Positions 17,735-51,672 of a stretch of 64,000 nt of DNA are shown here, one piece after another. Source of the stretch: Kofleriaceae bacterium (GTDB taxonomy: Bacteria; Myxococcota_A; Polyangia; Haliangiales; Haliangiaceae); contig JAWKQX010000006.1 of the NCBI GenBank assembly GCA_041389925.1, positions 151,837 through 215,836 of the forward strand, written 5' to 3'. The translations under genes and the position numbers were made by a program. Numbering within the stretch: the first letter of the stretch is position 1; each line of letters opens with the position of its first letter. The notes beneath the pieces were generated by a model that did no database searches, was not told the DNA's origin, and was given only the letters and a program-made list of their open reading frames with translations.

Positions 17735-19566
<1,832 letters not shown>

Positions 19567-19567
<1 letters not shown>

Positions 19568-20820: not shown

Positions 20821-20836
20821 CTTGCAAGGAGCTCTC

Positions 20837-21274
20837 ATGCGCATGTCGAAGATCGCCCTATCCCCCCGACGCCTCAGGGCGTCCCGCAACGCCAAGCGTC
20901 GCCAGAAAGGCATGACGCTGCTGGAGATCATGATCGTGCTCGCCATCTTGGCGCTGATCATGGGCCTGGTGGTTGGGCCTCGCGTCATGAAGCTGTTCAG
21001 CAAGTCCAAGGAGGACATCGCCGCCGCGACCGTCCGCAAGTACGCCAGCGAGGCGTTCCCGCTGTGGGCGCAGGCCAACCCGGACAAGGCGTGCCCGCCC
21101 AACATCGAGGCGCTCAACGAGTACATGAACAACAAGGAGAACAAGGACACCTGGGGCCAGCCGTACCGCTTGCTCTGCGGTCCCACGTTGCCCGCCGGCG
21201 CCCAGGGCATCGGCATCGTGTCCAACGGCCCCGACCAAAAAGAGAACACCGCGGACGACATCAAGTCCTGGTAG
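20837..21274 (+). CDS. gspG: major pseudopilin GspG (prepilin with unusually long 25-aa leader)
   Basis: Prepilin signature RRQKG/MTLLEIMIVLAILALI. AAGGAG Shine-Dalgarno 5 nt upstream of ATG 20837. Leader MRMSKIALSPRRLRASRNAKRRQKG is longer than the typical 6-10 aa. Confidence 0.85.
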   Translation: MRMSKIALSPRRLRASRNAKRRQKGMTLLEIMIVLAILALIMGLVVGPRVMKLFSKSKEDIAAATVRKYASEAFPLWAQANPDKACPPNIEALNEYMNNKENKDTWGQPYRLLCGPTLPAGAQGIGIVSNGPDQKENTADDIKSW

Positions 21275-21277
21275 CCC

Positions 21278-22081
21278 ATGCCCCTTCGCCGCCTCCATCC
21301 TACGCGCCTGACCATCGCCGCCTCGCGGCGGCGGCAGCGCGGCATCACCCTGCTGGAGATCATGATCGTGCTCGCGATCATGGGCGCCTCGCTGGGGCTG
21401 GTGCGGAGCGGCTTTCGCATGGTCACCAAGGCGGATCTGGCGGAGAACGCGGTGGAGCTGGTCGCGATGCTGCGGCGCACCAACCAGCTCGCGATCGAGA
21501 CCGGCGAGATGCACCGGCTGGTCCTCGATCTCGACAAGCACGCCTACGCCATCGAGGTGTGCCAGGGCCAGGCCGCGATCAGCCGCAACGAGGCGGTCAA
21601 GGTCGAAGAGGACGTCAAGCAGCGCGCGATCCTGCGCATGCAGGGTCGGCTCGGCGGCGCCTCGCCGGAGGCGCTGTCGACCGATCCGGAGGACGCCACC
21701 AAGAAGGCGCTCGCGCTGGCCGGGCACCACGTGGCGGATCGCTCGTGTGAGCAGGCGGCCGCGGGCCTCACCGGCGACTCGCAGGGCCGCGGCTGGGCCC
21801 GCGAGCTGCGCAGCAACAAGGGCATCAAGTTCCGCGAGGTCTGGGTGCAGCACCAGGACAAGAGCAGCACCGACGGTCAGGTCGCCATCTACTTCTTCCC
21901 GATCGGCTCGGCGGAGAAGGCGGTGATCGAGCTGACCGACGGCACGGACGTGTTCTCGGTCCTGCTGTTCGGCCTGACCTCGCTGGTGCAGATCCACGAC
22001 GGCACGCTGCCGGACGTCGAGGACCACATGTTGCGCAACATCAAGGGTGACCGCGACAAGGTCCGGGAGTCCAACCGATGA
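21278..22081 (+). CDS. gspH: minor pseudopilin GspH-like
   Basis: Prepilin N-terminus RRQRG/ITLLEIMIVLAIMGA. Position in the cluster. The ATG overlaps the next gene as ATGA. Confidence 0.75.
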   Translation: MPLRRLHPTRLTIAASRRRQRGITLLEIMIVLAIMGASLGLVRSGFRMVTKADLAENAVELVAMLRRTNQLAIETGEMHRLVLDLDKHAYAIEVCQGQAAISRNEAVKVEEDVKQRAILRMQGRLGGASPEALSTDPEDATKKALALAGHHVADRSCEQAAAGLTGDSQGRGWARELRSNKGIKFREVWVQHQDKSSTDGQVAIYFFPIGSAEKAVIELTDGTDVFSVLLFGLTSLVQIHDGTLPDVEDHMLRNIKGDRDKVRESNR

Positions 22082-22857
22082 TCACCGTGTGCCGTCTTGC
22101 GCGACGATCCAGGCGCGGCCGCACCGCCGCCGGCTTCACGCTGGTGGAGGTGATGCTGGCGCTGGCCATCCTCGGGATGGCGCTGATGATGCTGATGCGC
22201 AGCGCCACCGGCAGCCTGTTTGCCACGTCGCAGGCGCAGATGCTCGGCGTGGTCACCGATCTCGCGCGCGGCAAGATGTACGATCTCGAGGAGAAGGTCA
22301 CCAAGGAGGGCTTCTCCGACAGCAAGCAGACCGAGCAGGGCACCTTCGAGGCGGAGGGCTGGGAGTCGGTGGAGTGGGAGGCGACGATCGAGCCGGTCGA
22401 GCTGCCCAACCTGTCGACGGTGCAAGAGGTGGGCAAGAGCGCGGCGGCGAACAACACCAAGCCGTCGCCCAACGGCTCGGGGAGCGGCTCGGACGTGCAG
22501 GCCGCGCAAGACGCCACGGGCGGCTTCATCGAGCAGTTCTACGGCGTGATCTCGCAGGTGCTCAAGGTCGCCATCCGCAAGACCACGCTGGTGGTGAAGT
22601 GGAAGGTGCTGGGGCGCGATCGCGATCTGAAGGTCATCACGTACTTCACCAAGCCGGCGGCGATGGTCAACGCGATCAACGAGATCACCGGCGCGCTCGG
22701 CGGTGGCGGTGGCGGTGGCGGCAGCGGCGGCAGCAGCGGCGGTGGTGGCGGCAGCAGCGGCGGCGGCGGCAGCAGCGGCGGTGGCGGTAGCAGCGGCGGT
22801 GGCGGCAGCAGCGGCGGTGGCGGTAGCAGCGGCGGCGGCCGAGGTGGCGGCTCGTGA
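22078..22857 (+). CDS. gspI: minor pseudopilin GspI-like with C-terminal (GGGGSS)n tail
   Basis: AAGFTLVEVMLALAILGMAL prepilin motif. The C-terminal about 55 aa are Gly/Ser repeats encoded by an 18-bp tandem DNA repeat. Confidence 0.75.
   Translation: MITVCRLARRSRRGRTAAGFTLVEVMLALAILGMALMMLMRSATGSLFATSQAQMLGVVTDLARGKMYDLEEKVTKEGFSDSKQTEQGTFEAEGWESVEWEATIEPVELPNLSTVQEVGKSAAANNTKPSPNGSGSGSDVQAAQDATGGFIEQFYGVISQVLKVAIRKTTLVVKWKVLGRDRDLKVITYFTKPAAMVNAINEITGALGGGGGGGGSGGSSGGGGGSSGGGGSSGGGGSSGGGGSSGGGGSSGGGRGGGS
22700..22854 (+). repeat. 18-bp tandem repeat (ggcggcagcagcggcggt-like) encoding the GGGGSS tail of GspI
   Basis: Read directly: repeated ggcggtggcggtagcagcggcggtggcggcagcagc units. Confidence 0.8.
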
Positions 22858-23558
22858 GCCCTCGACGTTCCTGCGCGCGCGCGCGCGGCATGACCCTCCT
22901 GGAGGTCATGATCGGCCTGGCCATCCTCGGCATGATGATGGCGCTCACCTGGTCGACCATCTCCAACAGCTCGCGCGCCAAGCGCAGCTCGGAGGCGATC
23001 GAGCAGCGCAACCACGAGATCCGCGTGGCGATGGGCCAGGTGGTCCACGACTTCGAGAGCGCCTACCTCTCGCTCAACGAGGACACCAACTCGCAGAACC
23101 GGCGCACGCTGTTCATCGGCAAGAGCGGCAACAAGGTGCCGGAGATGCGCTTCTCTACGCTCAACCACCGCGTCCTCACCGCGGACGCCAACGAGTCCGA
23201 GCAGACGCAGATCTCCTACGAGGCGATGCGGGATCGGCAGGACGGCGACAAGACCAACTGGATCCGCCGCGAGCAGCGCCGGCTGTCCAACGAGAACCCC
23301 GAGGACGAGCCCGCGGAGTACGACGTCCTGGTCCACGACATCGAAGAGGTGCAGTTCGAGTTCTGGGACTGGAACCGCGAAGAGTGGAAGGACCGCTGGG
23401 ACTCCACCGCCAGCGACGGCGAGCGCGGGCGCCTGCCGGAGCGGGTGCGCATCACGCTCAAGATCAAGACGCCCAAGGGCGAGATCTCCACCCGCACCAC
23501 GCAGGCGAGCTTGCTCATGCAGGACTCCTTGCAGTTCAACCCAGATCGGGGGCCCTGA
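22854..23558 (+). CDS. gspJ: minor pseudopilin GspJ-like
   Basis: ARARG/MTLLEVMIGLAILGMMMAL prepilin motif. GTG start overlaps the gspI stop (GTGA). Position in the cluster. Confidence 0.75.
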   Translation: MSPRRSCARARGMTLLEVMIGLAILGMMMALTWSTISNSSRAKRSSEAIEQRNHEIRVAMGQVVHDFESAYLSLNEDTNSQNRRTLFIGKSGNKVPEMRFSTLNHRVLTADANESEQTQISYEAMRDRQDGDKTNWIRREQRRLSNENPEDEPAEYDVLVHDIEEVQFEFWDWNREEWKDRWDSTASDGERGRLPERVRITLKIKTPKGEISTRTTQASLLMQDSLQFNPDRGP

Positions 23559-24859
23559 TGCGCCGCCTACGCGTCCAGCGACCTCGCCTGGTCCGCGGCA
23601 AGCTGTTCGCCAGCCGCGAGCGCGGCATCGCGCTGGTGATGGTGATGATCGCGATCTCGATCATCCTCGCCATCACCAACCAGTTCGGCACCAACGCCAA
23701 CATCGACATGATCGCCGCGGCCAACTACCGCGATCAGATGCGCGCGCACTTCCTGGCGCGCACCGCGCTCAACGTCTCCGAGCTCGTCATCCGCATGCAG
23801 GTCGAGCTGGAGAAGCAGTTCAAGGGCCTGGACCTCACCAGCTACGCGGACCAGTTCATGATGGCGTTCTGCGGCAACCGCGCCGAGATCAGCGAGGCGC
23901 TCGGCGTCCCGGTGGAGCGGCTCGACGGGCTCGGCGGCGACATCGGCAACTGCGGCCTCATCCCGGCGATCACCACGGACGACAGCAAGATCAACCTCAA
24001 CTGTGCGTACAGCTCGAACAACAAGACGTTCGAGAGCCTGCGCGATCGGCTGATGTCGCTCTTGTCGTTCTCCGCGTACGATCCGGTGTTCGACGAAGGC
24101 GACGCCGAGGCCTGGCGGCGCAACCGCGAGACCCAGGTGGCGGCCCTGCTCGACTACGTCGACAAGGACTCGCTGCGCATGCGCGACCGCGGCTCGACGG
24201 AGGACTACGGCTACGAGTCGCTCAAGGACAGCTACCGCGCCAAGCAGAACCTCCTGGACACGGTCGGCGAGTTGCGGCTGGTCCGCGGCGTCGACGACCG
24301 CTTCTGGACGCTGTTCGGCAAGGCGTTCACCGTCTACGGCGGGTGCAAGATCAACCTCCAGGCGGTCGACAACGTCGCGCTGCTCGCCTCGATCCTGCGC
24401 CAGGCCGCGGAGAACCCGACCGACCCCGTGCTGCAAGATCAGCAGAAGCTGTGGCTCCTGGCCACGGTGATCATCAAGGCGCAGGAGTTCGGCCAGACGT
24501 TCAAGGACTCCGACGAGTTCATCGACTTCGTCAAGGACCCGGCGGCCGCGTTCAGCCTGCCCGGCCAGAAGGGCGGGCCTCCGCCTCAGATCCCCGGCCT
24601 CCCGCCGGGAGTGAAGGTCGGCCTGGCGCTCAAGAAGAGCGAGCTCGATCCCATCGTCACCTTCGGCGCGCGCATCACCTATCGCGTCACCGCGTGGGGC
24701 GAGATCAACCGCGCCCAGGTCGATGACAAGGGCAACCCCATCTTCCCCCCGGTCCGCCGCACGATCACCGGCGTCTGGGACACGGGCAAGACCCCCCAGC
24801 ACGTGCGCAAGGAACGGGAGGCCGGCAAGGGCGCCTGGGTCTTCCTGAAGGAGGAGTAG
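23558..24859 (+). CDS. gspK: minor pseudopilin GspK
   Basis: Start MRRLRVQRPRLVRGKLFASRERG/IALVMVMIAISIILAI (ATG 23558, TGATG overlap with gspJ). Lies in the C-terminal frame of artefact ORF 22703..24859. Large periplasmic domain typical of GspK. Confidence 0.8.
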   Translation: MRRLRVQRPRLVRGKLFASRERGIALVMVMIAISIILAITNQFGTNANIDMIAAANYRDQMRAHFLARTALNVSELVIRMQVELEKQFKGLDLTSYADQFMMAFCGNRAEISEALGVPVERLDGLGGDIGNCGLIPAITTDDSKINLNCAYSSNNKTFESLRDRLMSLLSFSAYDPVFDEGDAEAWRRNRETQVAALLDYVDKDSLRMRDRGSTEDYGYESLKDSYRAKQNLLDTVGELRLVRGVDDRFWTLFGKAFTVYGGCKINLQAVDNVALLASILRQAAENPTDPVLQDQQKLWLLATVIIKAQEFGQTFKDSDEFIDFVKDPAAAFSLPGQKGGPPPQIPGLPPGVKVGLALKKSELDPIVTFGARITYRVTAWGEINRAQVDDKGNPIFPPVRRTITGVWDTGKTPQHVRKEREAGKGAWVFLKEE

Positions 24860-24861
24860 CC

Positions 24862-26508
24862 ATGAGTCGGAACTTCGTCGTCGATCTCGGAGCATGGAGC
24901 GTCAAAGTGGCGGTCGCGGTTCCGGGCTTGCGCGGCGGCACCATCACCCACGTCGTCGAGCGCCTCATCCCCCCGGGGGAGGACGCGGTGGGCCCGCGCG
25001 CGGTGGCCGTGCTCGACGACCTGGTCAAGGAGCTGAACCTCCACAACGACACGATGTACTTCGCCGTGCGCGGCGATCAGCTCTTCACGCAGATCCTGGA
25101 TCTGCCGTTCCGCAACCTGCGGCGCACCGAGCTGGAGAAGGCGGTCGGCGGCGAGCTCGAGGGCGTGATGCCCGTCGATCTCGAGGACATGGTCTTCGCG
25201 TTCGAGCCGATCGCGGACGTCGCCACCGCCGCGCCGGTCGGCGAGGCCGAGGGCGAGCCGGCGCGCGGCCGCGCCCCCGACGCCATCGAGGGCATGCGCG
25301 TCCTGACCTACGCGATGCGCACCGACCGCGCCGAGGAGCTCATCGCCGAGGGCCAGGAGGCGGGCCACGATCCGCGGGCGCTCTTCCCGGTCGCGGCTGG
25401 CGCGGCGCGCGTGCTGGAGCGGTCCGGCGTGAGCACGCAGCTCGCCGGCGCGCCGATCGCCGTCCTCGATCTGGGGCACGAGCGCACCGAGGTCGCGCTG
25501 GTGCGAGGCGCGCAGATGCTGTTCAGCCGTAACCTGGCGCGCGGCGGCAAGCAGCTCACCGAGGCGATCGCGCGCACCTGGAAGCTCTCCTTCTACGACG
25601 CCGAGCAGGTCAAGCACACCGACGGCTTCGTCGCGTCCGCGGCCGAGCCCGCCACCTCCGAGGTGTGGTCGCGGCTGCACGGCGTCACGTCGGTGGAGCT
25701 GATGCCGCTGGTCCGCGACCTGCGGCAGACCTTCGCGGGCGCGCGCGCCCGCACCGGCTGCACGCCGACGGCGCTGCTCCTGGTGGGCGGCGGCTCGCGG
25801 CTGCGCGGCCTGGCCTCGTTCCTCTCCGAGCAGCTCGGCCTGCCGGCGCGGACGCTCTCGGAGATGGAGCGCGCCGCGATGGTCGGGCCCAAGGTGCCGG
25901 ACCTGTCCTCCGTCGACAGCCTGGCGATGACGATCGGCCTGTTGCACGAGTCGCTCACCGGCCGGCCCGCGTTCAACCTCCGCCAGGGCGAGCTGGCGGT
26001 GAAGGTCGACCTGTCGTTCTTGCGCACCAAGCTGTGGGCGCTGGGCGCCGCCGCCGTCGCGGTGGCGACGTTCGCCGCCGGCAGCGCGTACGCCAACATG
26101 TATCGCCTGCGCAAGGCCGAGAAGGTCCTCCAGCAGCGGCTCGCCGATGAATCGACGCAGCACTTCGGCACCAAGAAGACGGCGGACGAGGTCCTGTCCG
26201 CGCCGGGCGCCACCGCGGGCCTGGCGATCTCTCCGATGCCCAAGATGTCGGCGTATGATCTCCTCCTGGACATCAGCGCGCAGGTCCCGGGCAAGGACAA
26301 GATCACGCTGGACATCCTCCGGCTCGACATCACGGACTCGAAGGTCGACCTGGAGGGGACGGCGAAGAAGGCCGAGGAGATCGACCTGTTCCAGGGGGAG
26401 CTGAAGAAGAAGATCACCTGCTTCGAAGAGGTCACCCGCGGGACGACGGAGAGCGCCGAGAACGACGTTCAGCACTTCAAGATCAACATCAAGTCGAAAT
26501 GCATGTGA
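24862..26508 (+). CDS. gspL: type II secretion protein GspL (cytoplasmic actin-like domain, one TM, periplasmic domain)
   Basis: AAGGAGGAG Shine-Dalgarno before ATG 24862. Cytoplasmic domain, then TM LWALGAAAVAVATFAAGSAYA, then a periplasmic region. Position between gspK and gspM. Confidence 0.8.
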   Translation: MSRNFVVDLGAWSVKVAVAVPGLRGGTITHVVERLIPPGEDAVGPRAVAVLDDLVKELNLHNDTMYFAVRGDQLFTQILDLPFRNLRRTELEKAVGGELEGVMPVDLEDMVFAFEPIADVATAAPVGEAEGEPARGRAPDAIEGMRVLTYAMRTDRAEELIAEGQEAGHDPRALFPVAAGAARVLERSGVSTQLAGAPIAVLDLGHERTEVALVRGAQMLFSRNLARGGKQLTEAIARTWKLSFYDAEQVKHTDGFVASAAEPATSEVWSRLHGVTSVELMPLVRDLRQTFAGARARTGCTPTALLLVGGGSRLRGLASFLSEQLGLPARTLSEMERAAMVGPKVPDLSSVDSLAMTIGLLHESLTGRPAFNLRQGELAVKVDLSFLRTKLWALGAAAVAVATFAAGSAYANMYRLRKAEKVLQQRLADESTQHFGTKKTADEVLSAPGATAGLAISPMPKMSAYDLLLDISAQVPGKDKITLDILRLDITDSKVDLEGTAKKAEEIDLFQGELKKKITCFEEVTRGTTESAENDVQHFKINIKSKCM

Positions 26509-26514
26509 GCCGCC

Positions 26515-27105
26515 ATGTCAACCTTCGCAGATAACGCCAGCGACTGGTGGGAACGCAAGAACCCGCGCGAGCGCATGCTCTTGATGTCCCTCGCCGTGGT
26601 CGTGCCGATCACGCTCGCGGTCTACCTGGGCTCGTACATCAGCGACGGGCTCGCGAAGATCGAGAAGAACAACGCCACTACCCGGCGGGCGCTGTCGACG
26701 CTCGCCGATCTGCGCGCGCGCGGGCCGGTGGATCAGCCCACCGATGATCTGCTCGCCGCGATGCCGACGGAGCCGATCGGCCTGGAGAGCTACCTATCCC
26801 GCGCCGCCGAGAAGGCGAAGATCAAGATCCCGCGGTTCAACCCGCGGACGCCGGTCACCAAGGGCGGCTTCGTCACCCAGTCGATGCAGATCGACCTCAA
26901 CGACGTCTCGCTCGAGCAGGCGCGCGCCTTCCTCGAGGCGGTGGAGAAGGACTCGAACTACGTGGCCGTCACCGCGCTCAACGCAAGCCGGAAGTTCGGC
27001 GTGCAGGAGCGGCTCAACTTCAAGCTCGAGATCTCGTCGTACGCCAAGGAGCCCCCCGCGGTGAAGGCCGAGGCCGAGGGCAGCGGCTCAGGCGGAGGGA
27101 GCTAG
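26515..27105 (+). CDS. gspM: type II secretion protein GspM
   Basis: Small bitopic protein (TM LLMSLAVVVPITLAVYLG) following gspL. Confidence 0.75.
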   Translation: MSTFADNASDWWERKNPRERMLLMSLAVVVPITLAVYLGSYISDGLAKIEKNNATTRRALSTLADLRARGPVDQPTDDLLAAMPTEPIGLESYLSRAAEKAKIKIPRFNPRTPVTKGGFVTQSMQIDLNDVSLEQARAFLEAVEKDSNYVAVTALNASRKFGVQERLNFKLEISSYAKEPPAVKAEAEGSGSGGGS

Positions 27106-27108
27106 TCC

Positions 27109-28371
27109 ATGAGGCTTCTCGGCATCACCATCGGCTCGCGTGGGATGGCGCTCCTGCGCGCGATCGGGTACGTCGCGCTCGCGCTGGGCTCGTTCGTCTT
27201 CGCGCTGCAGCTCACCTTCCCGTACGGGCGGGTCAAGGATCGCCTCGTCGAGGTCCTCTCCACGAAGTACGACGTGGTGATCGGCGGCGTGGAGCGCGGC
27301 CTCTTGCCCGGCAAGATGATCCTCAACAACGTCAGCTTGAAGACGCGGGTGACCGAGCCCAACCAGGTGCCGTCGCTCTTCTACGTGAAGCGGATCGCGA
27401 TCGACCTCGGCGTGCTCGCCCTGCTCAGCAAGAAGGCCGTCCTCGACATCGAGGCGACCATCGGCACCGGCACCCTCGAGGGGACCGCGAGCTTCTCCAA
27501 GGAGCGCGCGCAGCTCGCGTTTCACAGCGACTCGCTGCCCGGCATGAACCTGCCGTTCCGCGAGCTGGTCGGCCTGCCGGTGCTCGGCGAAGTGGCGTTC
27601 AACCTGGACTTCGACTTCCAGCTCGTCCGCAACACGGTGGACTGGACCAAGGCGCGCGGCGACCTGACGCTGGAGTGCCCGCGCGGCTGCACCGTCGGCG
27701 ACGGCAAGACCAAGATCCGCCCCGCGGTCACGCGGCCGAACCAGGCCGAGTTCGTCAAGGACGGCATCGAGTTCAACAAGCTCAAGCTCGACAAGTTCTT
27801 GATGAAGCTCGAGGTCAAGAAGGGCACCGCGAAGCTCACCAAGTGGGAGGTGCCGTCGAAGGACGGCGAGGTGCACGTGGACTTCGAGGCGGCCCTGGAC
27901 AAGGTGCTCAACAACTCGCAGGTCACCGGCTGCCTGCGCTTCAACGGCTCGAAGGACCTGGAGAAGCGCGACTACCGGACCTTCGCGCAGCTCCGCACGC
28001 TGGGCGCGCCGCTCGGCCCTGACAACCTGTTCCACATTCGCCTCACCGGCCCGCTGAGCAAGGTCCGGCGCCTGGCGCAGGTCTGTGGCCCGGCCGCGGC
28101 GGGCGCCAACAGCGGCTCCTCCGGCGGCGGGACCTTCACGCCATCGCCGGCCGCCCCCGAGCCGCTGGTGCCGCCTCCTTCGCCGCCGCCCGAGCCGACG
28201 CCGCCTCCGGCGATCCCTCCGCCGACGCCGCCGACGCCTGCCGCGACCCCCGCGGTGCCGGGGGCCCAGCCGGAGCCGCAGCCGGCCGACGCGACCGCAC
28301 AGCCGGCGAACGCGCCGGCGGATCCCGCCGCGGAGAACCCCGCGGCCGCCGCGCCGGCCGTCGCAGAGTAG
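27109..28371 (+). CDS. gspN: type II secretion protein GspN with Pro/Ala-rich C-terminal tail
   Basis: N-terminal TM, large periplasmic domain, last gene of the gsp cluster. About 90-aa PAPEPLVPPPSPPPEPTPPPAIPPPTPP tail. Confidence 0.7.
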   Translation: MRLLGITIGSRGMALLRAIGYVALALGSFVFALQLTFPYGRVKDRLVEVLSTKYDVVIGGVERGLLPGKMILNNVSLKTRVTEPNQVPSLFYVKRIAIDLGVLALLSKKAVLDIEATIGTGTLEGTASFSKERAQLAFHSDSLPGMNLPFRELVGLPVLGEVAFNLDFDFQLVRNTVDWTKARGDLTLECPRGCTVGDGKTKIRPAVTRPNQAEFVKDGIEFNKLKLDKFLMKLEVKKGTAKLTKWEVPSKDGEVHVDFEAALDKVLNNSQVTGCLRFNGSKDLEKRDYRTFAQLRTLGAPLGPDNLFHIRLTGPLSKVRRLAQVCGPAAAGANSGSSGGGTFTPSPAAPEPLVPPPSPPPEPTPPPAIPPPTPPTPAATPAVPGAQPEPQPADATAQPANAPADPAAENPAAAAPAVAE

Positions 28372-37091: not shown

Positions 37092-40000
37092 ATGACGCGC
37101 GACGGCGAGCCCATGGGCGCACAGTCCGAGGAGGCCCGCGCGGAGACGGGGACGGAGGCGGCGGCGGAGACGGTGACGGTGACGGTAGCGGAGACGGAGA
37201 CGGTCGCGGAGACGGAGACGGTCGCGGAGACGGAGACGGTGACCGTGACGGTAGCGGGGGCGGAGACGGAGGCGGGGACGGAGACGGTAGCGGAGACGGA
37301 GACGGTAGCGGAGACGGAGACGGTAGCGGAGACGGAGACGGAGGCGGGGACGGAGACGGTAGCGGAGACGGAGACGGTGACCGTGACGGTAGCGGGGACG
37401 GAAGCGGTAGCGGGGACGGATGCGGTCGCGGATGCGGGAGCGGAGACGGTCGCGGTCGCGGAGGCGGGGACGGAGGCGGTCGCGGAGACGGTCGCGGTCG
37501 CGGAGGCGGGGACGGTCGCGGAGACGGTCGCGGTCGCGGAGACGGTCACGGTCGCGGACACGGGGACGGTCGCGGAGGCGGTCGCGGTCGCGGAGACGGT
37601 CACGGTCGCGGACACGGAGACGGTCGCGGCCACGGTGGACCCACGGGTGCCCTCGGCGCACCGGGCGGTCACCGTCGCCGCGCGAGGTCTGGGCGATCGC
37701 GTCGGCTCCACGGCGCGCGGGCCGATCGCGCACCTCGACACCGTCAACGACAGCGCGCCACGCGCGAACGCCGCGGAGGCTCGCCCCGACTCCGCGCCGC
37801 CGGAGTCGCGCTACGCCGGACGTCGCGAGCTCGGCCGCGGCGGCATGGGGCGCGTGCTGGAGGCCGTGGATCGCCACCTCGGGCGTGTCGTCGCCGTCAA
37901 GGAGTCGTTCGCCACCGACGAAGATGGACGACAGCGCTTCGCCCGAGAGGTCGCGATCACGTCGCGGCTGGAGCACCCGGCCATCGTGCCGCTCTACGAC
38001 GCCGGCACCACCGCCCAGGGCCGGCCGTACTACGTCATGCGCAAGCTCACCGGGCGCGGCCTCGATCAAGTGATGACCGCGGCGACCACCCTCGACGAGC
38101 GCATCGCGCTCTTGCCCGCGCTCCTGACCGTCTGCGACGCGGTCGCCCACGCCCACGCGCGCCGCGTCGTGCACCGCGACATCAAGCCGGGCAACATCTT
38201 GATCGGCGATCACGGCGAGACCATGGTGATCGACTGGGGCCTCGCGAAGGTCATCGGCGAACCCGCCGACGGGCCGGCCGACGCCGCTTCCAAGCCCCAC
38301 GTCCTGCCGCCCGACGCGCCCACCGCGCCGCCGCGCGGCGAGCACCCCCCGCTGCCGGTCGACGAGCTCAAGACCGTCGTCGGCTCGGTGTTCGGCACCC
38401 CGGGCTTCATGTCCCCCGAGCAAGCGCGCGGGGAGCAGCTCGACCTGCGCGGCGACGTCTACGCCCTCGGCGCGACGCTGTATCACCTGCTGGCGGGGCG
38501 GCCGCCGCACGTGGGCAGCTCCGCGACCGAGGTGATCGATCGCGTCCGCGTCGAGCCGCCGCCGCCCTTGCCGGAGGTCTGCCCGGGCGCGCCGGCGGAG
38601 CTCGTCGCCATCGTCGACAAGGCCATGGCGTTCGAGATCTCGGACCGCTACGCCGACGCCTCCGCGCTCGCGGGGGATCTGCGCCGGTTCCTCGCCGGGC
38701 AGCTCGTCGCCGCGCACCGCTACACGCTGTGGCAGCGGCTCCGCCGCGCCGCGCGTCGGCACCGCGCCGCGTTCCTCGTCGCGGGCGGCTCGCTGCTGGT
38801 GGTCGCGACGCTGGCGACCCTCAGCGTCGTCCGCATCATCAGCGAGCGCGATCACGCCGACGCGGCGCGCCGGATCGCGCAGCTCGAGCAGCGGCGCGCG
38901 GAGGAGGCCCGTGACGAGGCGGCCCTCCGCGCGGAGGAGCTGATCGTCGCGCAGGCGCACGGCCTCATCGAGCCGAACCCGACCGCGGCGCTCGCGCTGC
39001 TCAAGCGCCTCGCGCCGGGCTCGTCGGCGTGGCCCAAGGCGCGGATGATCGCGATGGCGGCGCAGGCGGAGGGCATCACCCGCGCCGTGCCGGCGAGCCG
39101 CACGCGCGTGCCCTCGATCTTCGCCATGAACCCGCGCAGCGATACCCTGCTCATCGGCGAGGATCAAGGGCGCATCCGGCTGCTCGACCTGGAGTCGCTC
39201 CGCATCCGCGAGCTGCTCGATGTCGGCGGGCGCGCGTTCGGCTGCTGGGTCAACGGCGGCGCCGCCGTGCTGCTCGCGAACGAGGCGGTCGGCATGGTGC
39301 TCCACGACGTCGCGTCCAAGCAGACGCGCACGGTGCCCATCTCGGCGCCGGTGAGTGCGCTGGAGTGCCAGGGCGGCAAGGGCGCGGCCTACCTCGACAA
39401 GGCCGGCGGCCTCTGGGTGGTGGACTCGGTGCTCGCGCAGGTGCGTCGGGTCGAGGCCGGCCTCGCGGTCGAGCACCTCGCGGTGACCCCGGACGGCGAG
39501 TGGCTGATCGTCGGCGGGCGAGGCGAGGCCGCGATCCTCGATCGCGACGGGGGCGTGCACCGACGCTTCTCCGGGGAGACCCTCCGGGTCCTCACGTCCG
39601 CGGGCGGGCGCGTCGGCATCTTCTTCCGCGATCGCGCGCTGGAGCTCGATCCGAAGAGCGACGCCGCGCCCACGGAGATCCCCTTGCCGAAGTTCCCGCT
39701 GGCGATCTTCTTCGTCGGCGAGAAGCTGCGCGTGCTCAACGGGCAGAACCGCCTGTGGTTCTCCGACGGCACGCTGGATGTGGAGCTGCCCACCACCCCG
39801 CAGGGGAGCGCGCCGCTCGGCGATCGCACCGCCGCGTTCGGCCTCCACGACGGCTCCGTGTGGCTCACCGGCTGGTGGGGCGCGCGCATGCTGCGCACAC
39901 CGGCGACCAGCGCGCTGGTCCGGCTCGCGGGCCGCGCGGGCTCGCCGTGGCTCGCCGCATGGACGACCGAGGGCGTGCTGGTCTGGAACCTCAGCGGCGC

Positions 40001-41052: not shown

Positions 41053-41907
<855 letters not shown>

Positions 41908-41939
41908 CGAGGGGAGTATGCACCAAGGCGGACGCGTCC

Positions 41940-42030
41940 CAGGTCTATTCTGGCGAGCATTGAAGCCATTAATCACTTGAAATCAATCAAGATCATCCTT
42001 GGAGACTTGATCAAGGATGGTAGCCCGCCG
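41940..42030. promoter_or_regulatory. AT-rich divergent intergenic region with imperfect inverted repeat (tcatccttgg-N10-ccaaggatgg) and direct tgatcaag repeats; candidate operator or promoter
   Basis: Local GC drops well below the window average. The IR was read directly between the aguB start (41907) and the + strand ATG 42116. Confidence 0.3.
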
Positions 42031-42115
42031 CGCCGTCTGTGCCTGTCGGTCCGAGATCCGGATCCGGCCGCCAAGAAACTTGCTTCCCGGGCCTCGCATC
42101 TGCACCATCGATCCG

Positions 42116-42388
42116 ATGAGCGAAGCCCACGCGATCCAGGTCGAGCCGCTCACCGAGCTGATGACGTGGGCGCAGATCTGCGCGCGGTATCCCGACCAAT
42201 GGGTCGCGGTTGTCGAGATGGACTGGGACGACGAGGCCGACGACTTCACCGTGGCGCGCGTCGCCGGGCACGGCATCACACGGCGAGCACCGTTCGATCA
42301 GATGCGCGCGGCCGGTCTCAACTACGAGCACGTCGGGCACTTCTTCACCGGCCGCGTGCGTCCGCACGCGATCGACTTCGCGCGCTGA
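42116..42388 (+). CDS. small hypothetical protein (91 aa)
   Basis: MSEAHAIQVEPLTELMTWAQICARYPDQWVAVVEMDWDDEADDF... Ordinary composition. ATG 42116 verified. Its stop lies 4 nt before the next gene. Confidence 0.5.
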   Translation: MSEAHAIQVEPLTELMTWAQICARYPDQWVAVVEMDWDDEADDFTVARVAGHGITRRAPFDQMRAAGLNYEHVGHFFTGRVRPHAIDFAR

Positions 42389-42391
42389 CCC

Positions 42392-42793
42392 GTGAAGGTC
42401 AGGCGCTTCGATCCCGATGACGATCTGATCATCATAAAGGCGAAGGTCTTCGGGAAGCACGGGAGCCGCGTCGTGAGCCTCGCGCTCGATACCGCAGCGT
42501 CGCACACGCATGTCTCGCCAGACATCGTCGACGAGCTCGGCTACAGCCCGGTTGAGGGCGAGGCGATCACGTCGGTGCGCTCGGCCGTCGGCAAGGAGCC
42601 TGGCTACATGCTGCGCGTGCGGCGCTTCGAGTCGCTCGGCTTCGCGTTCGACGACTTCCCGATCCACGTCCACGACCTTCCGGCCGGCTTCGGGATAGAC
42701 GGGTTGCTCGGGCTGAGCTTCCTCAAGCGCTTCAACTACGAGATCCGATCCCTCGAGGGCCGCATCCTTGTGAGTCCTGCCGACGGCAGATAG
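42392..42793 (+). CDS. retropepsin-like (clan AA) aspartic protease domain protein, 133 aa
   Basis: LALDTAASHTHV (hydrophobic-hydrophobic-D-T/S-G/A-A motif). ...IDGLLGLSFLKRF, matching bacterial gag-polyprotein-type aspartyl protease domains. GTG start. Confidence 0.65.
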   Translation: MKVRRFDPDDDLIIIKAKVFGKHGSRVVSLALDTAASHTHVSPDIVDELGYSPVEGEAITSVRSAVGKEPGYMLRVRRFESLGFAFDDFPIHVHDLPAGFGIDGLLGLSFLKRFNYEIRSLEGRILVSPADGR

Positions 42794-42952
42794 CAGGGGG
42801 ATGAACAACACCGCGAAGCGGCGTTGTTCTCGGCGAGATCGGGCACGGGCACGGGCACGGGGCAGGATGGCTGAAGAACGCGACTCCGCCGCGTTCTTCA
42901 GCATCCTGCTAGCTCTACCCCTGCGCATCCCGACCGGCTGGCTCGGGATCAA

Positions 42953-43996
42953 CTACGGGCGCGTCGGCTGCTGCTGCGTCGAGCAATGGAAGGCGCCGCC
43001 GCCGACCACCACCGGCTTGCCGGCCAGGCCCACGGCGCGGCGACCGGGAAACAGCTTGGCGATCGCGGCGACCGCGGCGTCATCGGCGGCGACCCCGTAG
43101 GTCGGCACCACCACGGCGGTGTTGGACAGATAGAAGTTCATGTAGCTCGCGGGCAGGAGCACGCCGCTGCGATCGCGCACCTCGCCGGGCGAGGGCACCG
43201 CGACCACCTCCAGCGCGTGGCCGCCGGGGCGCGCGGCGCGCAGATCGTCGAGGATGCCGCGCAGCGCGTCGCGGTTGGGATCCCCCGGCGCCGGCTCCAT
43301 CGCCGCGACCACGCCGGGCGCGACGAAGCGCGCCAGCGTGTCGATGTGGCCATCGGTGTGATCGTTCTCGAGGCCGCGGTCGAGCCAGATCACGTGCTCT
43401 ACGCCGAGCGCCCAGCGCAGCCGCGCCTCCAGCGCGGCCTCGTCGAGGCCGGGGTTGCGCGCGCCGCCGAGCAGGCACTGCTTGGTGGTGAGCAGCCGCC
43501 CCTCGCCGTCCACCTCGATCGCGCCGCCCTCGAGGACGAAGTCGTACGCCGCGCCGGACAGCCCGCACGCACGGGTGACGCGCGCCGAGACCTCGCGATC
43601 GCCGTCCATCAGGTACTTGCCGCCCCAGCCGTCGAAGCCGAAGCGCGCCGCGGTCACCTCGCCGGCGCGGGTGAGGAAGATCGGCCCGGTGTCGCGCAGC
43701 CAGACGTCGCCGTAGCGGCCGTGGTGGAAGCGCACGCCGGTCGCGGCGGCGCCGAGCAGCGCGCGGGCGGCGGCCTCGTCCACCGGGCCGCGCACCAGCA
43801 GCTCCACGCGCTCGCCGCGCGGTTGGCCGTGGTCGTCGAGATCGACGATCGCCGCGCACATCGCCATGAGCGCGCGCTGCGGCTCGTCGAGCCCCTCGGT
43901 CCACTGCTCGGGATCGTGCGGCCACGCGGTCCACACCGCGTCATGGGGCGCCCACTCGGCGGGCATGGTGAAGCGCTCGCGGTTCGACGTCCTCAT
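42953..43996 (-). CDS. aguA: agmatine deiminase (porphyranase-type PAD family)
   Basis: Internal start MRTSNRERFTMPAEWAPHDAVWTAWPH (ATG 43996). ...GGAFHCSTQQQP C-terminal catalytic Cys motif. 347 aa. GGAAGG Shine-Dalgarno inside the end of yebC. Confidence 0.88.
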   Translation of the reverse strand: MRTSNRERFTMPAEWAPHDAVWTAWPHDPEQWTEGLDEPQRALMAMCAAIVDLDDHGQPRGERVELLVRGPVDEAAARALLGAAATGVRFHHGRYGDVWLRDTGPIFLTRAGEVTAARFGFDGWGGKYLMDGDREVSARVTRACGLSGAAYDFVLEGGAIEVDGEGRLLTTKQCLLGGARNPGLDEAALEARLRWALGVEHVIWLDRGLENDHTDGHIDTLARFVAPGVVAAMEPAPGDPNRDALRGILDDLRAARPGGHALEVVAVPSPGEVRDRSGVLLPASYMNFYLSNTAVVVPTYGVAADDAAVAAIAKLFPGRRAVGLAGKPVVVGGGAFHCSTQQQPTRP

Positions 43997-48104: not shown

Positions 48105-48340
48105 CCGCCGCCGCCACCGTCCCCGTCGCGGCCACGGCCACCGCCACCGTCACGGTCACCGTCCCCGTCACGGTCGCCGTCCCCGTCACGGCCACCGCCA
48201 CCGTCACGGCCACCGTCACGGTCACGGCCACCGCCACCGCCACCGTCACGGTCACCGTCCCCGTCACGGCCACCGCCCCCGTCACGGCCACCGCCACCGT
48301 CACGGCACGCCTCCGTCACCGTCACCGTCGCCGCCTCCGT
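48105..48340. repeat. GTSACS hexanucleotide repeat tract abutting the IS left end
   Basis: Read directly (ccgtcacggtcaccgtccccgtcacggccacc...). Continues on the other side of the IS (49869-49920). Confidence 0.8.
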
Positions 48341-49868
48341 CTATCGATCCCGCACAAGTTTCCGGATCAATTCAGTCCCTTAGCCTTCTCCGTCGAAAAA
48401 ACGTCAGATGGTCGTGATCCCCTCGGTCGATGAAAGAGCGGCTGGACGAGGATGCCATCGGTCGAATGCAGGACGACTTGAGCCGGTCCGACCTTGGGGA
48501 TCCCCGGCGGGTCTCTCGTGCACAACAGATCGTCGCTCGCCTAGCGGCGTCCCCGGGGTCTTCGCTTCCCGAAGCCCTGGTCACCGATGCGGAACTGGAG
48601 GGGGCCTATCGACTCTTCAACAACGACCGCGTGACCTTTGAGCAGCTCTTCGATGCTCATGCGGGGGGCACCGTCGAACGAGCGCGAGGTCGCAAGCTGG
48701 TCCTCGCGATCCACGACACCACGGCGTGCTCGTTCCGACATGCGGATCCTCGAGAGATCGGGTACCTCCACACGGGGAAGCCAGGGTTTCTGTTGCACAT
48801 GACGATGCTCGTCGATACGGAGCAGTGGCGGCGGCCTTTGGGGCTCACCCATGCAGAGGTCCTCACGCGCGACAAACCGAGCAGTCGCAAATCGCGCATG
48901 TCGGGGGGAGAGACGGCGAAGCTCGCCGACCGGGAATATCTTCGCTGGCAACGTGGCATTTCGGTCTCCGAGGCCCGGTTGCAGCAAGCGGGCGCGTCGA
49001 TCATCCACGTGGCAGACCGCGAGAGCGATTCGTACGAGTTGATGGCGACGTGCGTGTCCCTCGGGCAGCGGTTCATCCTTCGAGCCAAGACGCATCGCAC
49101 CGTGGACCTGGACGGCCAGCGTGTTGGAATTCGGGATTTCGTCGTCGAGCAAGGGCGTGTCCGATTGGAGCGCGAGGTCCCGTTGTCACGGCGCCTCGGT
49201 ACCTCCATGCCCAATCGACGGCGCGACCATCCGCCACGCGAGAGCCGCGTCGCTAAGCTTTGCTTCTCGACGACGCAGGTGACGTTGCGTCGCCCCAACA
49301 TCGTTCCCGCGCGCAACGCGCCCCCCACGCTTGAGGTCAACGCGCTGCACGTGTTTGAGCCCGAGCCGCCGCCTGGCCAAGAGGCCGTCGACTGGTTGCT
49401 GTACACGACGGAGCCCCTCGGTACACGGCAGGAGATCGAAGACGTCGTCGACTACTACCGATGCCGTTGGCAGATCGAAGAACTCAACAAGGCGCTCAAG
49501 ACGGGCTGCGTGGTGCAGGAACGCCAGCTCGAGTCATTCGACGCGCTCACCACGATGCTGGCGCTCTCGCTCCCCATTGCCGTCGAGTTGCTTGCGCTTC
49601 GTACCCTCGCTCGCTCCGACGAGACGGCCCCCGCCACGGAGGTGCTCTCAGAGGACGAGCTTGCCGCTCTTCGCCACATGAGCCATCGGCCCCTCCCGGA
49701 CCGCCCCACCGTGCAGGACGCTCTCTGGTGCATCGCCGGGATCGGTGGACACATCAAGAATAATGGCTCGCCGGGTTGGCAGGTCCTCCAACGCGGCATG
49801 GAAAAGTTCATGTCTTTCGCGGCCGGATGGTGCGCGGCAAAGGCCGCCGACTTGTGATCAATCGATAG
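48341..49868 (+). mobile_element. IS4-family insertion sequence (about 1.53 kb) with imperfect terminal inverted repeats and a 10-bp target-site duplication
   Basis: Left end ctatcgatcccgcacaag. Right end cttgtgatcaatcgatag (the inverted counterpart). Flanked by the direct repeat ccgcctccgt at 48331-48340 and 49869-49878. A single transposase ORF lies inside. Confidence 0.8.
48430..49857 (+). CDS. IS4-family DDE transposase (475 aa)
   Basis: YYRCRWQIEELNKALK = Y-2-R-3-E-6-K signature of IS4-family transposases. DDE-type catalytic-core composition. ATG 48430. Confidence 0.85.
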   Translation: MKERLDEDAIGRMQDDLSRSDLGDPRRVSRAQQIVARLAASPGSSLPEALVTDAELEGAYRLFNNDRVTFEQLFDAHAGGTVERARGRKLVLAIHDTTACSFRHADPREIGYLHTGKPGFLLHMTMLVDTEQWRRPLGLTHAEVLTRDKPSSRKSRMSGGETAKLADREYLRWQRGISVSEARLQQAGASIIHVADRESDSYELMATCVSLGQRFILRAKTHRTVDLDGQRVGIRDFVVEQGRVRLEREVPLSRRLGTSMPNRRRDHPPRESRVAKLCFSTTQVTLRRPNIVPARNAPPTLEVNALHVFEPEPPPGQEAVDWLLYTTEPLGTRQEIEDVVDYYRCRWQIEELNKALKTGCVVQERQLESFDALTTMLALSLPIAVELLALRTLARSDETAPATEVLSEDELAALRHMSHRPLPDRPTVQDALWCIAGIGGHIKNNGSPGWQVLQRGMEKFMSFAAGWCAAKAADL

Positions 49869-49920
49869 CCGCCTCCGTCACCGTCTCCGCCCGTCTCCGC
49901 CACCGTCTCCGTCTCCGTCA
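49869..49920. repeat. short GTSACS hexanucleotide tract between the IS right end and the four-helix-bundle gene A
   Basis: ccgcctccgtcaccgtctccgcccgtctccgccaccgtctccgtctccgtcac read directly. Confidence 0.7.
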
Positions 49921-49948: not shown

Positions 49949-50272
49949 TCACCGAGGGGCTGCGAGCCGGTAGAGCATGCCGCCGAGCCGGTCCGCGATG
50001 GCATGGGGCGACTCGGTGCCGTCGAGCCAGCCCTTGGCCGTCGCGAGCGCCAGCGCGCTGCGCACCTCGCGGAGGCTGCCGTACGCGATGCGGAACAGCT
50101 GCACGCGGTCACCGCCGAAGCGCCCGCCGGCCTCAGCGAGGTTCAGCGCGACGCTATCCGCGGCGCGATCGAGCTGACGAGCAAGGTCTCGGTCGCGCTG
50201 GCGAACCGCCGCGAGCGGGCCGCGAAGACTACGAACCAGGTCGAGCGAGAGGTCATAGGCGAGAAAGGGCAT
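49949..50272 (-). CDS. four-helix-bundle protein (TIGR02436 / 23S rRNA intervening-sequence protein / Avd-like), copy A, 107 aa
   Basis: MPFLAYDLSLDLVRSLRG...LARQLDRAADSVALNLAEAGGRF...QLFRIAYGSLREVRSALALA. Conserved xxAxSIxxNIAEG and LxEL motifs of the family. GGAGA Shine-Dalgarno 9 nt upstream. Confidence 0.8.
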   Translation of the reverse strand: MPFLAYDLSLDLVRSLRGPLAAVRQRDRDLARQLDRAADSVALNLAEAGGRFGGDRVQLFRIAYGSLREVRSALALATAKGWLDGTESPHAIADRLGGMLYRLAAPR

Positions 50273-50421: not shown

Positions 50422-50949
50422 GCCCGGCTCGACCTGAGCTCGCTCCTGACCGCCGTGGCCGTGACCGTGACCGTGGCCGTGACCGTGACCGTGGCCGTCG
50501 CCGAGACCGCGACCGTGGCCGTCGCCGAGACCGTGGCCGTCGCCGAGACCGCGACCGTGGCCGTCGCCGGGACCGCGACCGAGACCGTCGCCGGGACCGC
50601 GACCGAGACCGTCGCCGAGACCGCGACCGTGGCCGTCGCCGAGACCGCGACCGTGGCCGTCTCCGAGACCGCTGCCGCCACCGTCTCCGTCTCCGTCACC
50701 GTCACCGTCACCGTCTCCGTCTCCGTCACCGTCACCGTCACCGTCTCCGCCACCGCCACCGCCACCGTCTCCGTCTCCGTCTCCGCCACCGTCCCCGTCT
50801 CCGCCACCGCCACCGCCACCGCCACCGCCACCGTCTCCGTCTCCGTCTCCGTCTCCGCCACCGCCGCCGCCGCCGTCACCGCCTCCGGCTCCGTCACCGA
50901 GGCCGTTTCCGCTGCCGAGGCCGTTTCCGCTGCCGAGGCCCGCGGCTGA
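50419..50949 (+). CDS. putative repeat protein ORF-X (MADARLDLSSLL + about 150 aa of TV/AV/ET dipeptide repeats); may be a non-functional by-product of the palindrome
   Basis: Same SD (ctGGAGAtggccgATG) as the four-helix-bundle gene. The first 15 aa resemble the four-helix-bundle N-terminus. The body is encoded entirely by the hexanucleotide repeat, in a high-GC3 frame. Confidence 0.3.
   Translation, partial: DARLDLSSLLTAVAVTVTVAVTVTVAVAETATVAVAETVAVAETATVAVAGTATETVAGTATETVAETATVAVAETATVAVSETAAATVSVSVTVTVTVSVSVTVTVTVSATATATVSVSVSATVPVSATATATATATVSVSVSVSATAAAAVTASGSVTEAVSAAEAVSAAEARG
50452..50945. repeat. largest GTSACS hexanucleotide tract (about 75 units) followed by two 18-bp repeats (gccgaggccgtttccgct)
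   Basis: Read directly. Every frame on both strands is open through the tract. Confidence 0.85.
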
Positions 50950-51607: not shown

Positions 51608-51672
51608 CCGTCACGGCCACCGTCACGGTCACGGTCACGGCCACCGTCCCCGTCCCCGTCACGTCCACCGTC
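51608..51672. repeat. GTSACS hexanucleotide tract read in-frame into the SDR gene's upstream ORF
   Basis: ccgtcacggccaccgtcacggtcacggtcacggccaccgtccccgtccccgtcacgtccaccgtc. Confidence 0.75.

Follow-up and report, generated by a model that had tools for sequence, protein, structure and literature searches.

A putative toxin-antitoxin-like or defence-type gene pair encoding a retropepsin-like protein at the aguA-aguB junction of a Kofleriaceae bacterium

Introduction

PDC-M08 is one of 145 phage-defence candidates and was nominated by its embedding in BREX, DISARM or type I restriction-modification (RM) loci (Payne et al., bioRxiv 10.1101/2024.01.29.577857). The corresponding cassette, CAS_00054 (FAM_03167>>FAM_00414), has 381 occurrences in RefSeq, and an embedded variant, CAS_00963, adds FAM_00001, a type I specificity-subunit family (10.1101/2024.01.29.577857). 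Here we describe a two-gene cassette with a similar architecture, which lies between aguA (agmatine deiminase) and aguB (N-carbamoylputrescine amidase) in the genome of a Kofleriaceae bacterium (assembly GCA_041389925.1). Gene A of the cassette encodes a small acidic protein and gene B a retropepsin-like protein. The analysed stretch of 64,000 nucleotides (contig JAWKQX010000006.1, positions 151,837 to 215,836) is hereafter called the window, and positions are counted from its first nucleotide.

Bacterial retropepsins that have already been described include APRc, which is membrane-anchored, and the Rlo enzymes, which are secreted (PMC4140852, PMC12239564). Bacteria also have cytoplasmic retropepsin-like proteases with a regulatory role, such as RimB (PMC11957791). 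In the pregnancy-associated glycoproteins, which are pepsin-family pseudoproteases, a change of Gly34 to Ala beside the catalytic Asp-Thr is considered to drive out the catalytic water and to leave the peptide-binding cleft in place (PMC4890903). In the literature that we searched, no functional study of PDC-M08, of proteins with the domain DUF5678 or of retropepsin toxin-antitoxin pairs was found.

Results

We tentatively interpret the pair as a horizontally acquired, translationally coupled cassette of toxin-antitoxin-like or defence type that belongs to the PDC-M08 branch and has a putative function, an interpretation to which we give a little less than an even chance. Gene B matches all five PDC-M08B models (best PDLC04405, E-value 1.3e-11, positions 6-117 of 127), and PDC-M08A is the only PADLOC model matched by the gene A family (58 of 84 diverse members, best E-value 2e-5). 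Like PDC-M08, in which a protein of ~86 amino acids (aa) is followed by one of ~93-128 aa, the locus consists of two co-directional genes in the same order. Unlike PDC-M08, it has a very divergent gene A, its gene B falls into a clade with the motif D-T-A and not D-T-G, and no BREX, DISARM or RM genes adjoin it. On the strength of these profile matches, we assign the locus to the PDC-M08 candidate architecture, as a divergent branch in myxobacteria, and do not regard it as a proven defence system. The initial annotation of this DNA had guessed at a toxin/antitoxin-like or defence-associated pair, which agrees with the PDC-M08 matches, the function itself being putative.

The open reading frames (ORFs) and flank profiles agree with an earlier description of the locus as an opposite-strand, two-gene segment of ~1 kb between aguA and aguB. 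Both plus-strand ORFs are intact between the minus-strand aguB and aguA genes (Table 1), and gene B starts 3 nt past the gene A stop, on the same strand and with A first. The aguA product scores below the equivalog and subfamily cutoffs of TIGR03380 (3e-65) and NF010070 (5.9e-70). The same aguB-A-B-aguA arrangement can be seen in two short-read assemblies of the same strain (L091 and L092). The GC profile across 41.9-43.0 kb, which had been proposed as a check on the insertion, supports it: the GC content of positions 41908-42952 (1,045 bp) is 0.642 against a window mean of 0.710 (standard deviation 0.029), and only 0.4% of equally long stretches within the window are as low. At third codon positions (GC3), the pair has 0.87-0.88 and aguA/aguB 0.95-0.96. 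The GC content of the pair was 0.60-0.66 in six of the seven hosts examined, i.e., 2-9 points under the flanks; the exception is L086, in which it equals that of the left flank and exceeds that of the right flank. No second copy of the cassette occurs within the window, and Rfam matches were at chance level only.

Our scan for AguA, with one genome per species, returned 80 loci, and the aguA-aguB junction could be assessed in 43 Kofleriaceae-type relatives (L007-L054). The pair occupies the junction in none of the 43 and was found there in the window strain only, to which L091 and L092 also belong. The expectation that aguA and aguB are normally adjacent holds for the alphaproteobacterial and other outgroups, in which only 2-22 bp separate the two genes, and for 24 of the 43 relatives, with gaps of 5-100 bp. 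It fails for the other 19, which carry 160-4,700 bp of other, unrelated DNA at the junction. This cargo includes a GNAT acetyltransferase, a flavodoxin-like reductase, an alpha/beta hydrolase, an eCIS_core protein, qNOR, an RCC1-repeat lipoprotein with an outer-membrane-like protein, ArsR with an SRPBCC-like ORF, and response-regulator/kinase sets. The orientation of aguB with respect to aguA is reversed in L043, and L006, which has the closest AguA (83%), has no aguB within 5 kb. Within Kofleriaceae, genes have been gained repeatedly at the aguA/aguB junction, which makes the presence of cargo there less surprising. The boundaries of the insert could not be mapped against relatives with tight junctions because the intergenic DNA is too diverged (nearest AguA 83-84% identical), and we found no flanking direct repeats, target-site duplication or terminal repeats around the insert.

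The pair is mobile between contexts, tightly coupled and under purifying selection, and its gene B has frequently decayed beside an intact gene A. We read its contexts from long contigs of other Kofleriaceae and Myxococcota, where it adjoins genes for an S8 peptidase and QRPTase (L001), Uma2 and OmpA (L004), TsiV and DUF4259 (L086), nucleotidyltransferase and SEC-C proteins (L087), an IS66 transposase and APH (L088), and a NACHT-CHAT protein (L089). The occurrence of the same pair in these unrelated contexts and in a viral contig, its absence from the 43 junctions of relatives and the drop in GC content all uphold the initial view of a small inserted cassette. Three contexts adjoin PADLOC candidates, namely PDC-M31A/B (8e-177 and 5e-93), PDC-S03 (5.5e-15) and PDC-S09 (4e-7). 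The PDC-M31A/B pair, an AAA_21/AAA_15 ATPase and its partner, comes directly after an orphan gene A that has no protease and an ORF lengthened to 176 aa (L152, 271-2708).

In every other copy examined, A precedes B on one strand; the proteins have 87-90 and 130-134 aa, and the genes are separated by a 3-nt gap or share a 4-nt overlap. No conserved DNA was found 3' of the gene B stop among the copies. A metagenome census seeded with gene A gave 80 loci, 63 of which could be assessed. Gene B sequence lies directly downstream of A in 53 of the 63, in most cases with a start at -3 (the 4-nt overlap) or at +2/+3. Beside an intact A, 38 loci had an intact gene B, 4 a frameshifted and 11 a truncated one, and 10 had none. 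Gene B is thus damaged or missing in 25 of the 63 loci that retain A (~40%), a count that is biased by the use of A as the seed and by frameshift errors in metagenome assemblies. In L003, an intact A stands beside a B that lacks the active-site segment, and contig Ga0335083_10001542 (31.5 kb; L133 and L139) carries two pairs ~15 kb apart, one with an intact protease and one with a protease split by a frameshift. The ratio of nonsynonymous to synonymous substitution rates (dN/dS) was 0.14-0.31 for gene A (unsaturated comparisons) and 0.14-0.26 for gene B, with a sole outlier of 0.40 (window against L087). Given this purifying selection, we read both genes as functional.

The assignment of gene B to the clan AA proteases, for which a profile search had been suggested as a check, was confirmed with matches to PF13650 (Asp_protease_2; 2.9e-11, 44.3 bits, gathering score 24.3) and PF13975 (gag-asp_proteas; 7.9e-9, 36.4 bits, gathering score 28.2). 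In NCBIfam, the only match was to TIGR02281 (1.9e-5, under its cutoff); PHROGs gave nothing, and the family profile matched PDB sequences only at E-values of at least 0.15. An AlphaFold 2 (AF2) model built from a 45-sequence alignment has a predicted local distance difference test (pLDDT) score of 88.4. The nine best PDB matches of this model in Foldseek are chains of Rickettsia APRc (5c9f, E-value 2.4e-6, template modelling score 0.67), followed in the ranking by HIV/SIV protease and DDI1. We consider the predicted retropepsin fold a sound assignment. No signal or membrane segment was seen in the protein on inspection. Like APRc, RimB and Rlo, gene B is predicted to encode a single-domain clan AA fold with a hydrophobic-hydrophobic-Gly motif and is expected to form a homodimer; unlike them, with ~20% identity, it has D-T-A and an obligate small upstream partner gene.

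The LALDTAAS motif reported initially is present at residues 30-37 of gene B, and it reads D33-T34-A35-A36 and not the catalytic D-T-G-A. DTAA occurs in 116 of 120 clusters that are at least 60% identical to gene B, and DTG in two. The four residues are invariant in a 14-sequence protease alignment, which contains 45 invariant residues in total (each sequence at least 59% identical to the window protein). The canonical motif is kept in distant relatives, with DTGA in a phage copy (55% identical) and DTGS in L089, and DTG occurs in 8 of 36 full-length metagenome copies of gene B. The hydrophobic-hydrophobic-Gly motif C-terminal to the active site is present: in the GLLG motif (residues 104-107), G104, L105 and G107, together with L108, are invariant in two further alignments (A3 and A5), in both of which L106 is nearly invariant (at least 90%).

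Two histidines, His40 and His94, accompany the Gly-to-Ala change in the D-T-A clade. In relatives with D-T-G, position 40 is occupied by V, L or I and position 94 by F or L, and His92 and Asp95 are conserved beyond the D-T-A clade. Together, His40, His92, His94 and Asp95 (nt 42509-42511 and 42665-42676) may constitute a new metal- or ligand-binding site near the former active site. By analogy with the pregnancy-associated glycoproteins, which undergo the same Gly-to-Ala change, the D-T-A clade may be catalytically impaired or remodelled. Those proteins are eukaryotic, two-lobed, secreted members of the A1 family, unlike gene B, and the analogy is one of chemistry and not of system homology. 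With the D-T-A motif, gene B may bind its targets and not cleave them, or may use an altered chemistry. The altered catalytic motif and the co-varying histidines are the most interesting detail of the locus.

The gene A protein is 100% identical to NCBI R3B48_24100. It had initially been given as 91 aa and is in fact 90 aa long; its initial Met is shared by 42 homologues, which fixes the start. A longer ORF of 123 aa from the ATG at 42017 was rejected, since the homologues start at the 90-aa Met and the extension is not conserved. Conserved positions include W18, YPDQWV (25-30), ARVxGHG (47-53), R56, P59, Q62, Y70 and GHFFTG (74-79). The product is acidic (isoelectric point 5.1), with a charge of -10 in the N-terminal half and +4 in the C-terminal half. 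It has no match in Pfam or NCBIfam. A profile search recovered 1,607 gene A clusters at 90% identity, none of which is named or carries a Pfam domain, and an exhaustive HMMER search recovered 594 clusters at 50% identity (E-value of at most 1e-3). In the AF2 model (pLDDT 81), a small alpha/beta domain is followed by a C-terminal tail that is disordered, and the family profile matched PDB sequences only at E-values of at least 0.35.

The gene A family consensus resembles DUF5678 (PF18929; 3.2e-4, 20.9 bits, under the gathering score of 23.2), to which 8 of 84 family members have weak matches (best 0.016) and the window protein has none at E-values up to 1. Like DUF5678, these are small proteins with a core of the Y-x-x-x-W-V-a-l-V type; unlike the 49-position DUF5678 model, gene A extends to ~90 aa with additional conserved ARVxGHG and GHFFTG segments. 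In one subfamily, with proteins of 177-201 aa, the gene A domain is duplicated in tandem (P0163-P0201 and P0249-P0252; L089, 4001-4534). In L089, the tandem gene A is followed by a full-length D-T-G-S protease (4559-4948), beside a NACHT-CHAT protein of 1,209 aa. Two further gene A homologues, P0380 and P0386, end in the protease C-terminal motif (...FLRHFNYEVRSQEGALRVERC and ...SSEGRILTTRA), and they look like in-frame deletions that joined A to the tail of B with loss of the protease core.

Upstream of the cassette, an AT-richer, context-specific spacer (Table 1) has no alignable counterpart upstream of the other cassette copies and presumably contains the promoter of aguB. The inverted repeat noted earlier in an AT-rich leader does exist here. 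Its 8-nt arms, CATCCTTG (41994-42001) and CAAGGATG (42012-42019), overlap a palindrome, CTTGATCAAG. Arms of at least this length arise in 7.7% of dinucleotide-preserving shuffles of the 208-nt spacer, so that the repeat is not significant, and it is missing from the other cassette copies; we therefore rejected it as an operator. In the seven upstream regions that were aligned, similarity begins ~40-55 nt 5' of the ATG, and the TTG at 42080-42082 is invariant among the aligned copies. This conserved block could be a promoter, with a -35-like TTGCTT (42080-42085), a 17-nt spacer and a -10-like CACCAT (42103-42108), in which case the mRNA would be near-leaderless. A consensus promoter scan that included sigma-70 found no site.

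Downstream of gene B, the first hairpin likely terminates the cassette transcript, and the second, stronger hairpin is likely a bidirectional terminator. A consensus terminator scan found no site, and the first hairpin fails its criteria. The 146-nt hairpin region folds at -75.9 kcal/mol (z = -5.9), and none of 200 shuffles folds as well. The cores of the two hairpins are inverted copies of each other (42788-42829 and 42873-42914, 74% complementary), and each arm is palindromic. This element is unique in the window and was found elsewhere only in the same-strain contigs L091 and L092. If the hairpins are terminators, there would be no read-through from aguA into aguB, and aguB would need a promoter in the spacer.

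Table 1. Coordinates of the cassette and adjoining features in the window.
Feature	Position	Strand	Basis and remarks
aguB (N-carbamoylputrescine amidase), left flank	41053-41907	-	TIGR03381 4.3e-130, 433 bits (cutoff 410); PF00795 2.6e-52
AT-richer, context-specific spacer	41908-42075		Between the divergent aguB and cassette starts; GC content down to 0.59
Conserved upstream block	42076-42115	+	AAACTTGC then CTGCACC; sole upstream DNA kept among copies
Gene A, 90 aa, start ATG 42116	42116-42388 (stop included)	+	ORF and homologues
Gene B, 133 aa, start GTG 42392	42392-42793	+	ORF and Pfam Asp_protease_2
Hairpin 1	42803-42829	+	GAACAACACCGC-GAA-GCGGCGTTGTTC; 10 nt past the gene B stop; no U-tract
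Hairpin 2, strong, ~20 bp	42862-42909		Between the convergent ends of gene B and aguA
aguA (agmatine deiminase), right flank	42953-43990	-	PF04371 2.2e-102

Other features of the window were also recorded. Besides aguA and aguB, the neighbours of the cassette include a YebC-type regulator, a decarboxylase-like ORF and a kinase. An IS4-like transposase gene (48430-49857; Tnp_DNA_bind and DDE_Tnp_1, GC3 0.78) lies in a low-GC patch 5.5 kb from the cassette, and the same patch contains a gene for a 23S_rRNA_IVP four-helix-bundle protein (49949-50272). Long arrays of period 6, made of up to 68 copies of CCGTCA or GCGGAG-type hexamers, occur at 37140-37638, 48111-48341, 49869-49919, 50452-50940 and 51608-51672. 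Two of these arrays flank the IS4-like transposase on both sides, and one encodes the Thr/Val/Ala/Glu-rich N-terminus of a 1,314-aa Ser/Thr kinase ORF. A run of ORFs at 17735-28371, which spans two more low-GC patches, includes an ATPase, a platform protein, pseudopilin-like N-termini and a PilM-like protein, and, judged from the translations alone, resembles a cluster for type II secretion or for a type IV pilus-like apparatus.

Discussion

The coupling of the two genes, their patchy distribution, their carriage by a phage and their PADLOC-candidate neighbours fit a toxin-antitoxin-like or abortive-infection module. As in type II toxin-antitoxin systems, the upstream gene is small and overlaps the somewhat larger second gene by 4 nt or is separated from it by 3 nt, contexts are variable, and the downstream partner has often decayed where the upstream one is kept. 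Unlike those systems, the pair shows neither a toxin or antitoxin fold of a known type nor a conserved operator, and no DNA-binding domain is recognisable in A. Decay of B beside an intact A is the asymmetry that would be expected if B were harmful and A its antidote. The 1-kb cassette would have landed in antiparallel orientation at the aguA-aguB gene-gain site. Gene B would then encode a cytoplasmic, single-domain, retropepsin-like effector that acts as a homodimer, and A would be its stoichiometric partner, with one A per B protomer silencing B or coupling it to a trigger; the tandem-A subfamily, in which a duplicated A accompanies one B, would suit this ratio if each protomer of a B dimer takes one A domain. 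Loss or displacement of A would allow B to act on cellular or phage proteins. A physical interaction of A with B, toxicity of B and any anti-phage role are inferred.

Several observations weigh against a toxin-antitoxin-like or defence-type function. The window locus lies outside any defence island, among metabolic genes, the YebC-type regulator and the kinase, and is neither embedded in nor adjacent to known defence systems, the kind of setting on which the nomination of PDC-M08 was based; the "defence candidate" label of PDC-M08 is itself guilt by embedding alone. The window gene A matches PDC-M08A weakly (8e-4, over 25 of 86 positions), its model has no meaningful fold neighbour in the PDB, and it has no recognisable DNA-binding or known antitoxin domain. 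Gene B lacks the catalytic Asp-Thr/Ser-Gly triad, and by the analogy drawn above D-T-A would argue against a simple model of the protease as a toxin. The seeding bias in the decay count and the results of the phage and plasmid searches given below point in the same direction.

An alternative is that B is a domesticated regulatory protease and A its adaptor or substrate, comparable with RimB in the RimABK system of Pseudomonas, with a housekeeping or stress role that is possibly tied to polyamines. Cytoplasmic regulators of the retropepsin-like type are known in bacteria (RimB; PMC11957791), both genes are under purifying selection outside a defence island, and the strong hairpin parts aguB from aguA transcription and so alters the architecture of the operon. 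A housekeeping role sits poorly with a pair that is found at this junction in one strain and in none of 43 relatives, that elsewhere lies beside unrelated genes, in a phage and near transposase and defence-candidate genes, and whose gene B is degraded with a frequency unlike that of a housekeeping gene. We regard this alternative as unlikely.

The pair could also be a phage-derived moron or prophage remnant with a role in the phage life cycle, such as superinfection exclusion or host takeover, that was stranded after prophage loss. In a 36.6-kb viral contig from IMG/VR (L093), a D-T-G-A pair (55% identical) lies on the opposite strand between neck-type and head-tail adaptor genes, close to a major head gene. 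This is a typical moron position, and the A protein of this phage copy matches PDC-M08A with an E-value of 1.5e-5 (positions 2-53 of 86). The IS4-like transposase 5.5 kb from the cassette would also accord with a mobile origin of this kind. Against it, a scan of 2.9 million viral contigs recovered one locus when seeded with A and none when seeded with B, and a tblastn search with B found no relative in the plasmid and phage collections of GenBank (50,697 phage records). Neither other phage genes nor an integrase or tRNA gene (ARAGORN) were found near the window locus, and most copies have plain chromosomal contexts. A stranded phage gene pair therefore has a low probability in our estimation, and the idea overlaps with that of a toxin-antitoxin-like or defence cassette because such modules are often phage-borne.

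A further possibility concerns the chemistry of gene B. The D-T-A clade might be a non-protease, re-purposed retropepsin fold that, with its DUF5678-like partner, forms a new kind of toxin-antitoxin or abortive-infection module, in which the retroviral-protease fold would serve as a peptide-binding sensor or non-proteolytic effector. If this were true, the Gly-to-Ala change would abolish or alter catalysis, and His40 and His94 would join His92 and Asp95 in a metal- or ligand-binding site. We consider this combined proposal improbable as it stands.

Retropepsins favour hydrophobic or aromatic residues at P1/P1'. Gene A and gene B could accordingly be a precursor and its processing enzyme, with B cutting A, e.g., after GHFF-TG, to release an active peptide or protein. 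The invariant GHF(F/Y)TG of A, which is followed by a variable, low-confidence tail, and the tight coupling of the two genes are in keeping with this. In the AF2 model, however, GHFF is a core beta-strand (E74-77, block pLDDT ~88) and not an exposed linker, no modification, export or immunity genes accompany the pair, and D-T-A argues against efficient cleavage, which makes processing of A by B less probable than any of the preceding explanations. Inert passenger DNA, i.e., a decaying insertion without current function, could account for the ~40% of A-seeded loci with a damaged or missing B and for a junction that takes many kinds of cargo, but is highly improbable in view of window ORFs that are intact, coupled and flanked by the conserved upstream block and hairpins, dN/dS values well below 1 (0.14-0.31) and 45 invariant residues across 14 aligned proteases.

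Conclusion

In conclusion, we tentatively place the gene pair between aguA and aguB among toxin-antitoxin-like or defence-type cassettes of the PDC-M08 branch. The finding sharpens an existing candidate; current views stand, and no new kind of system is proposed on this basis. The known repertoire of toxin-antitoxin and defence effectors is dominated by nucleases, NADases and membrane disruptors; an effector with a retropepsin fold would be an addition to it if the pair indeed has either of these roles. In that case, a function would also be provided for DUF5678-like proteins, which make up at least 594 unnamed clusters at 50% identity.

For annotation, the aguA-aguB junction should be regarded as a site that repeatedly gains genes in Kofleriaceae, and "aspartic protease" labels on members of the D-T-A clade may overstate their catalytic competence. 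The natural switch from D-T-G to D-T-A under purifying selection offers a ready comparison of an active with an altered form of the same fold.

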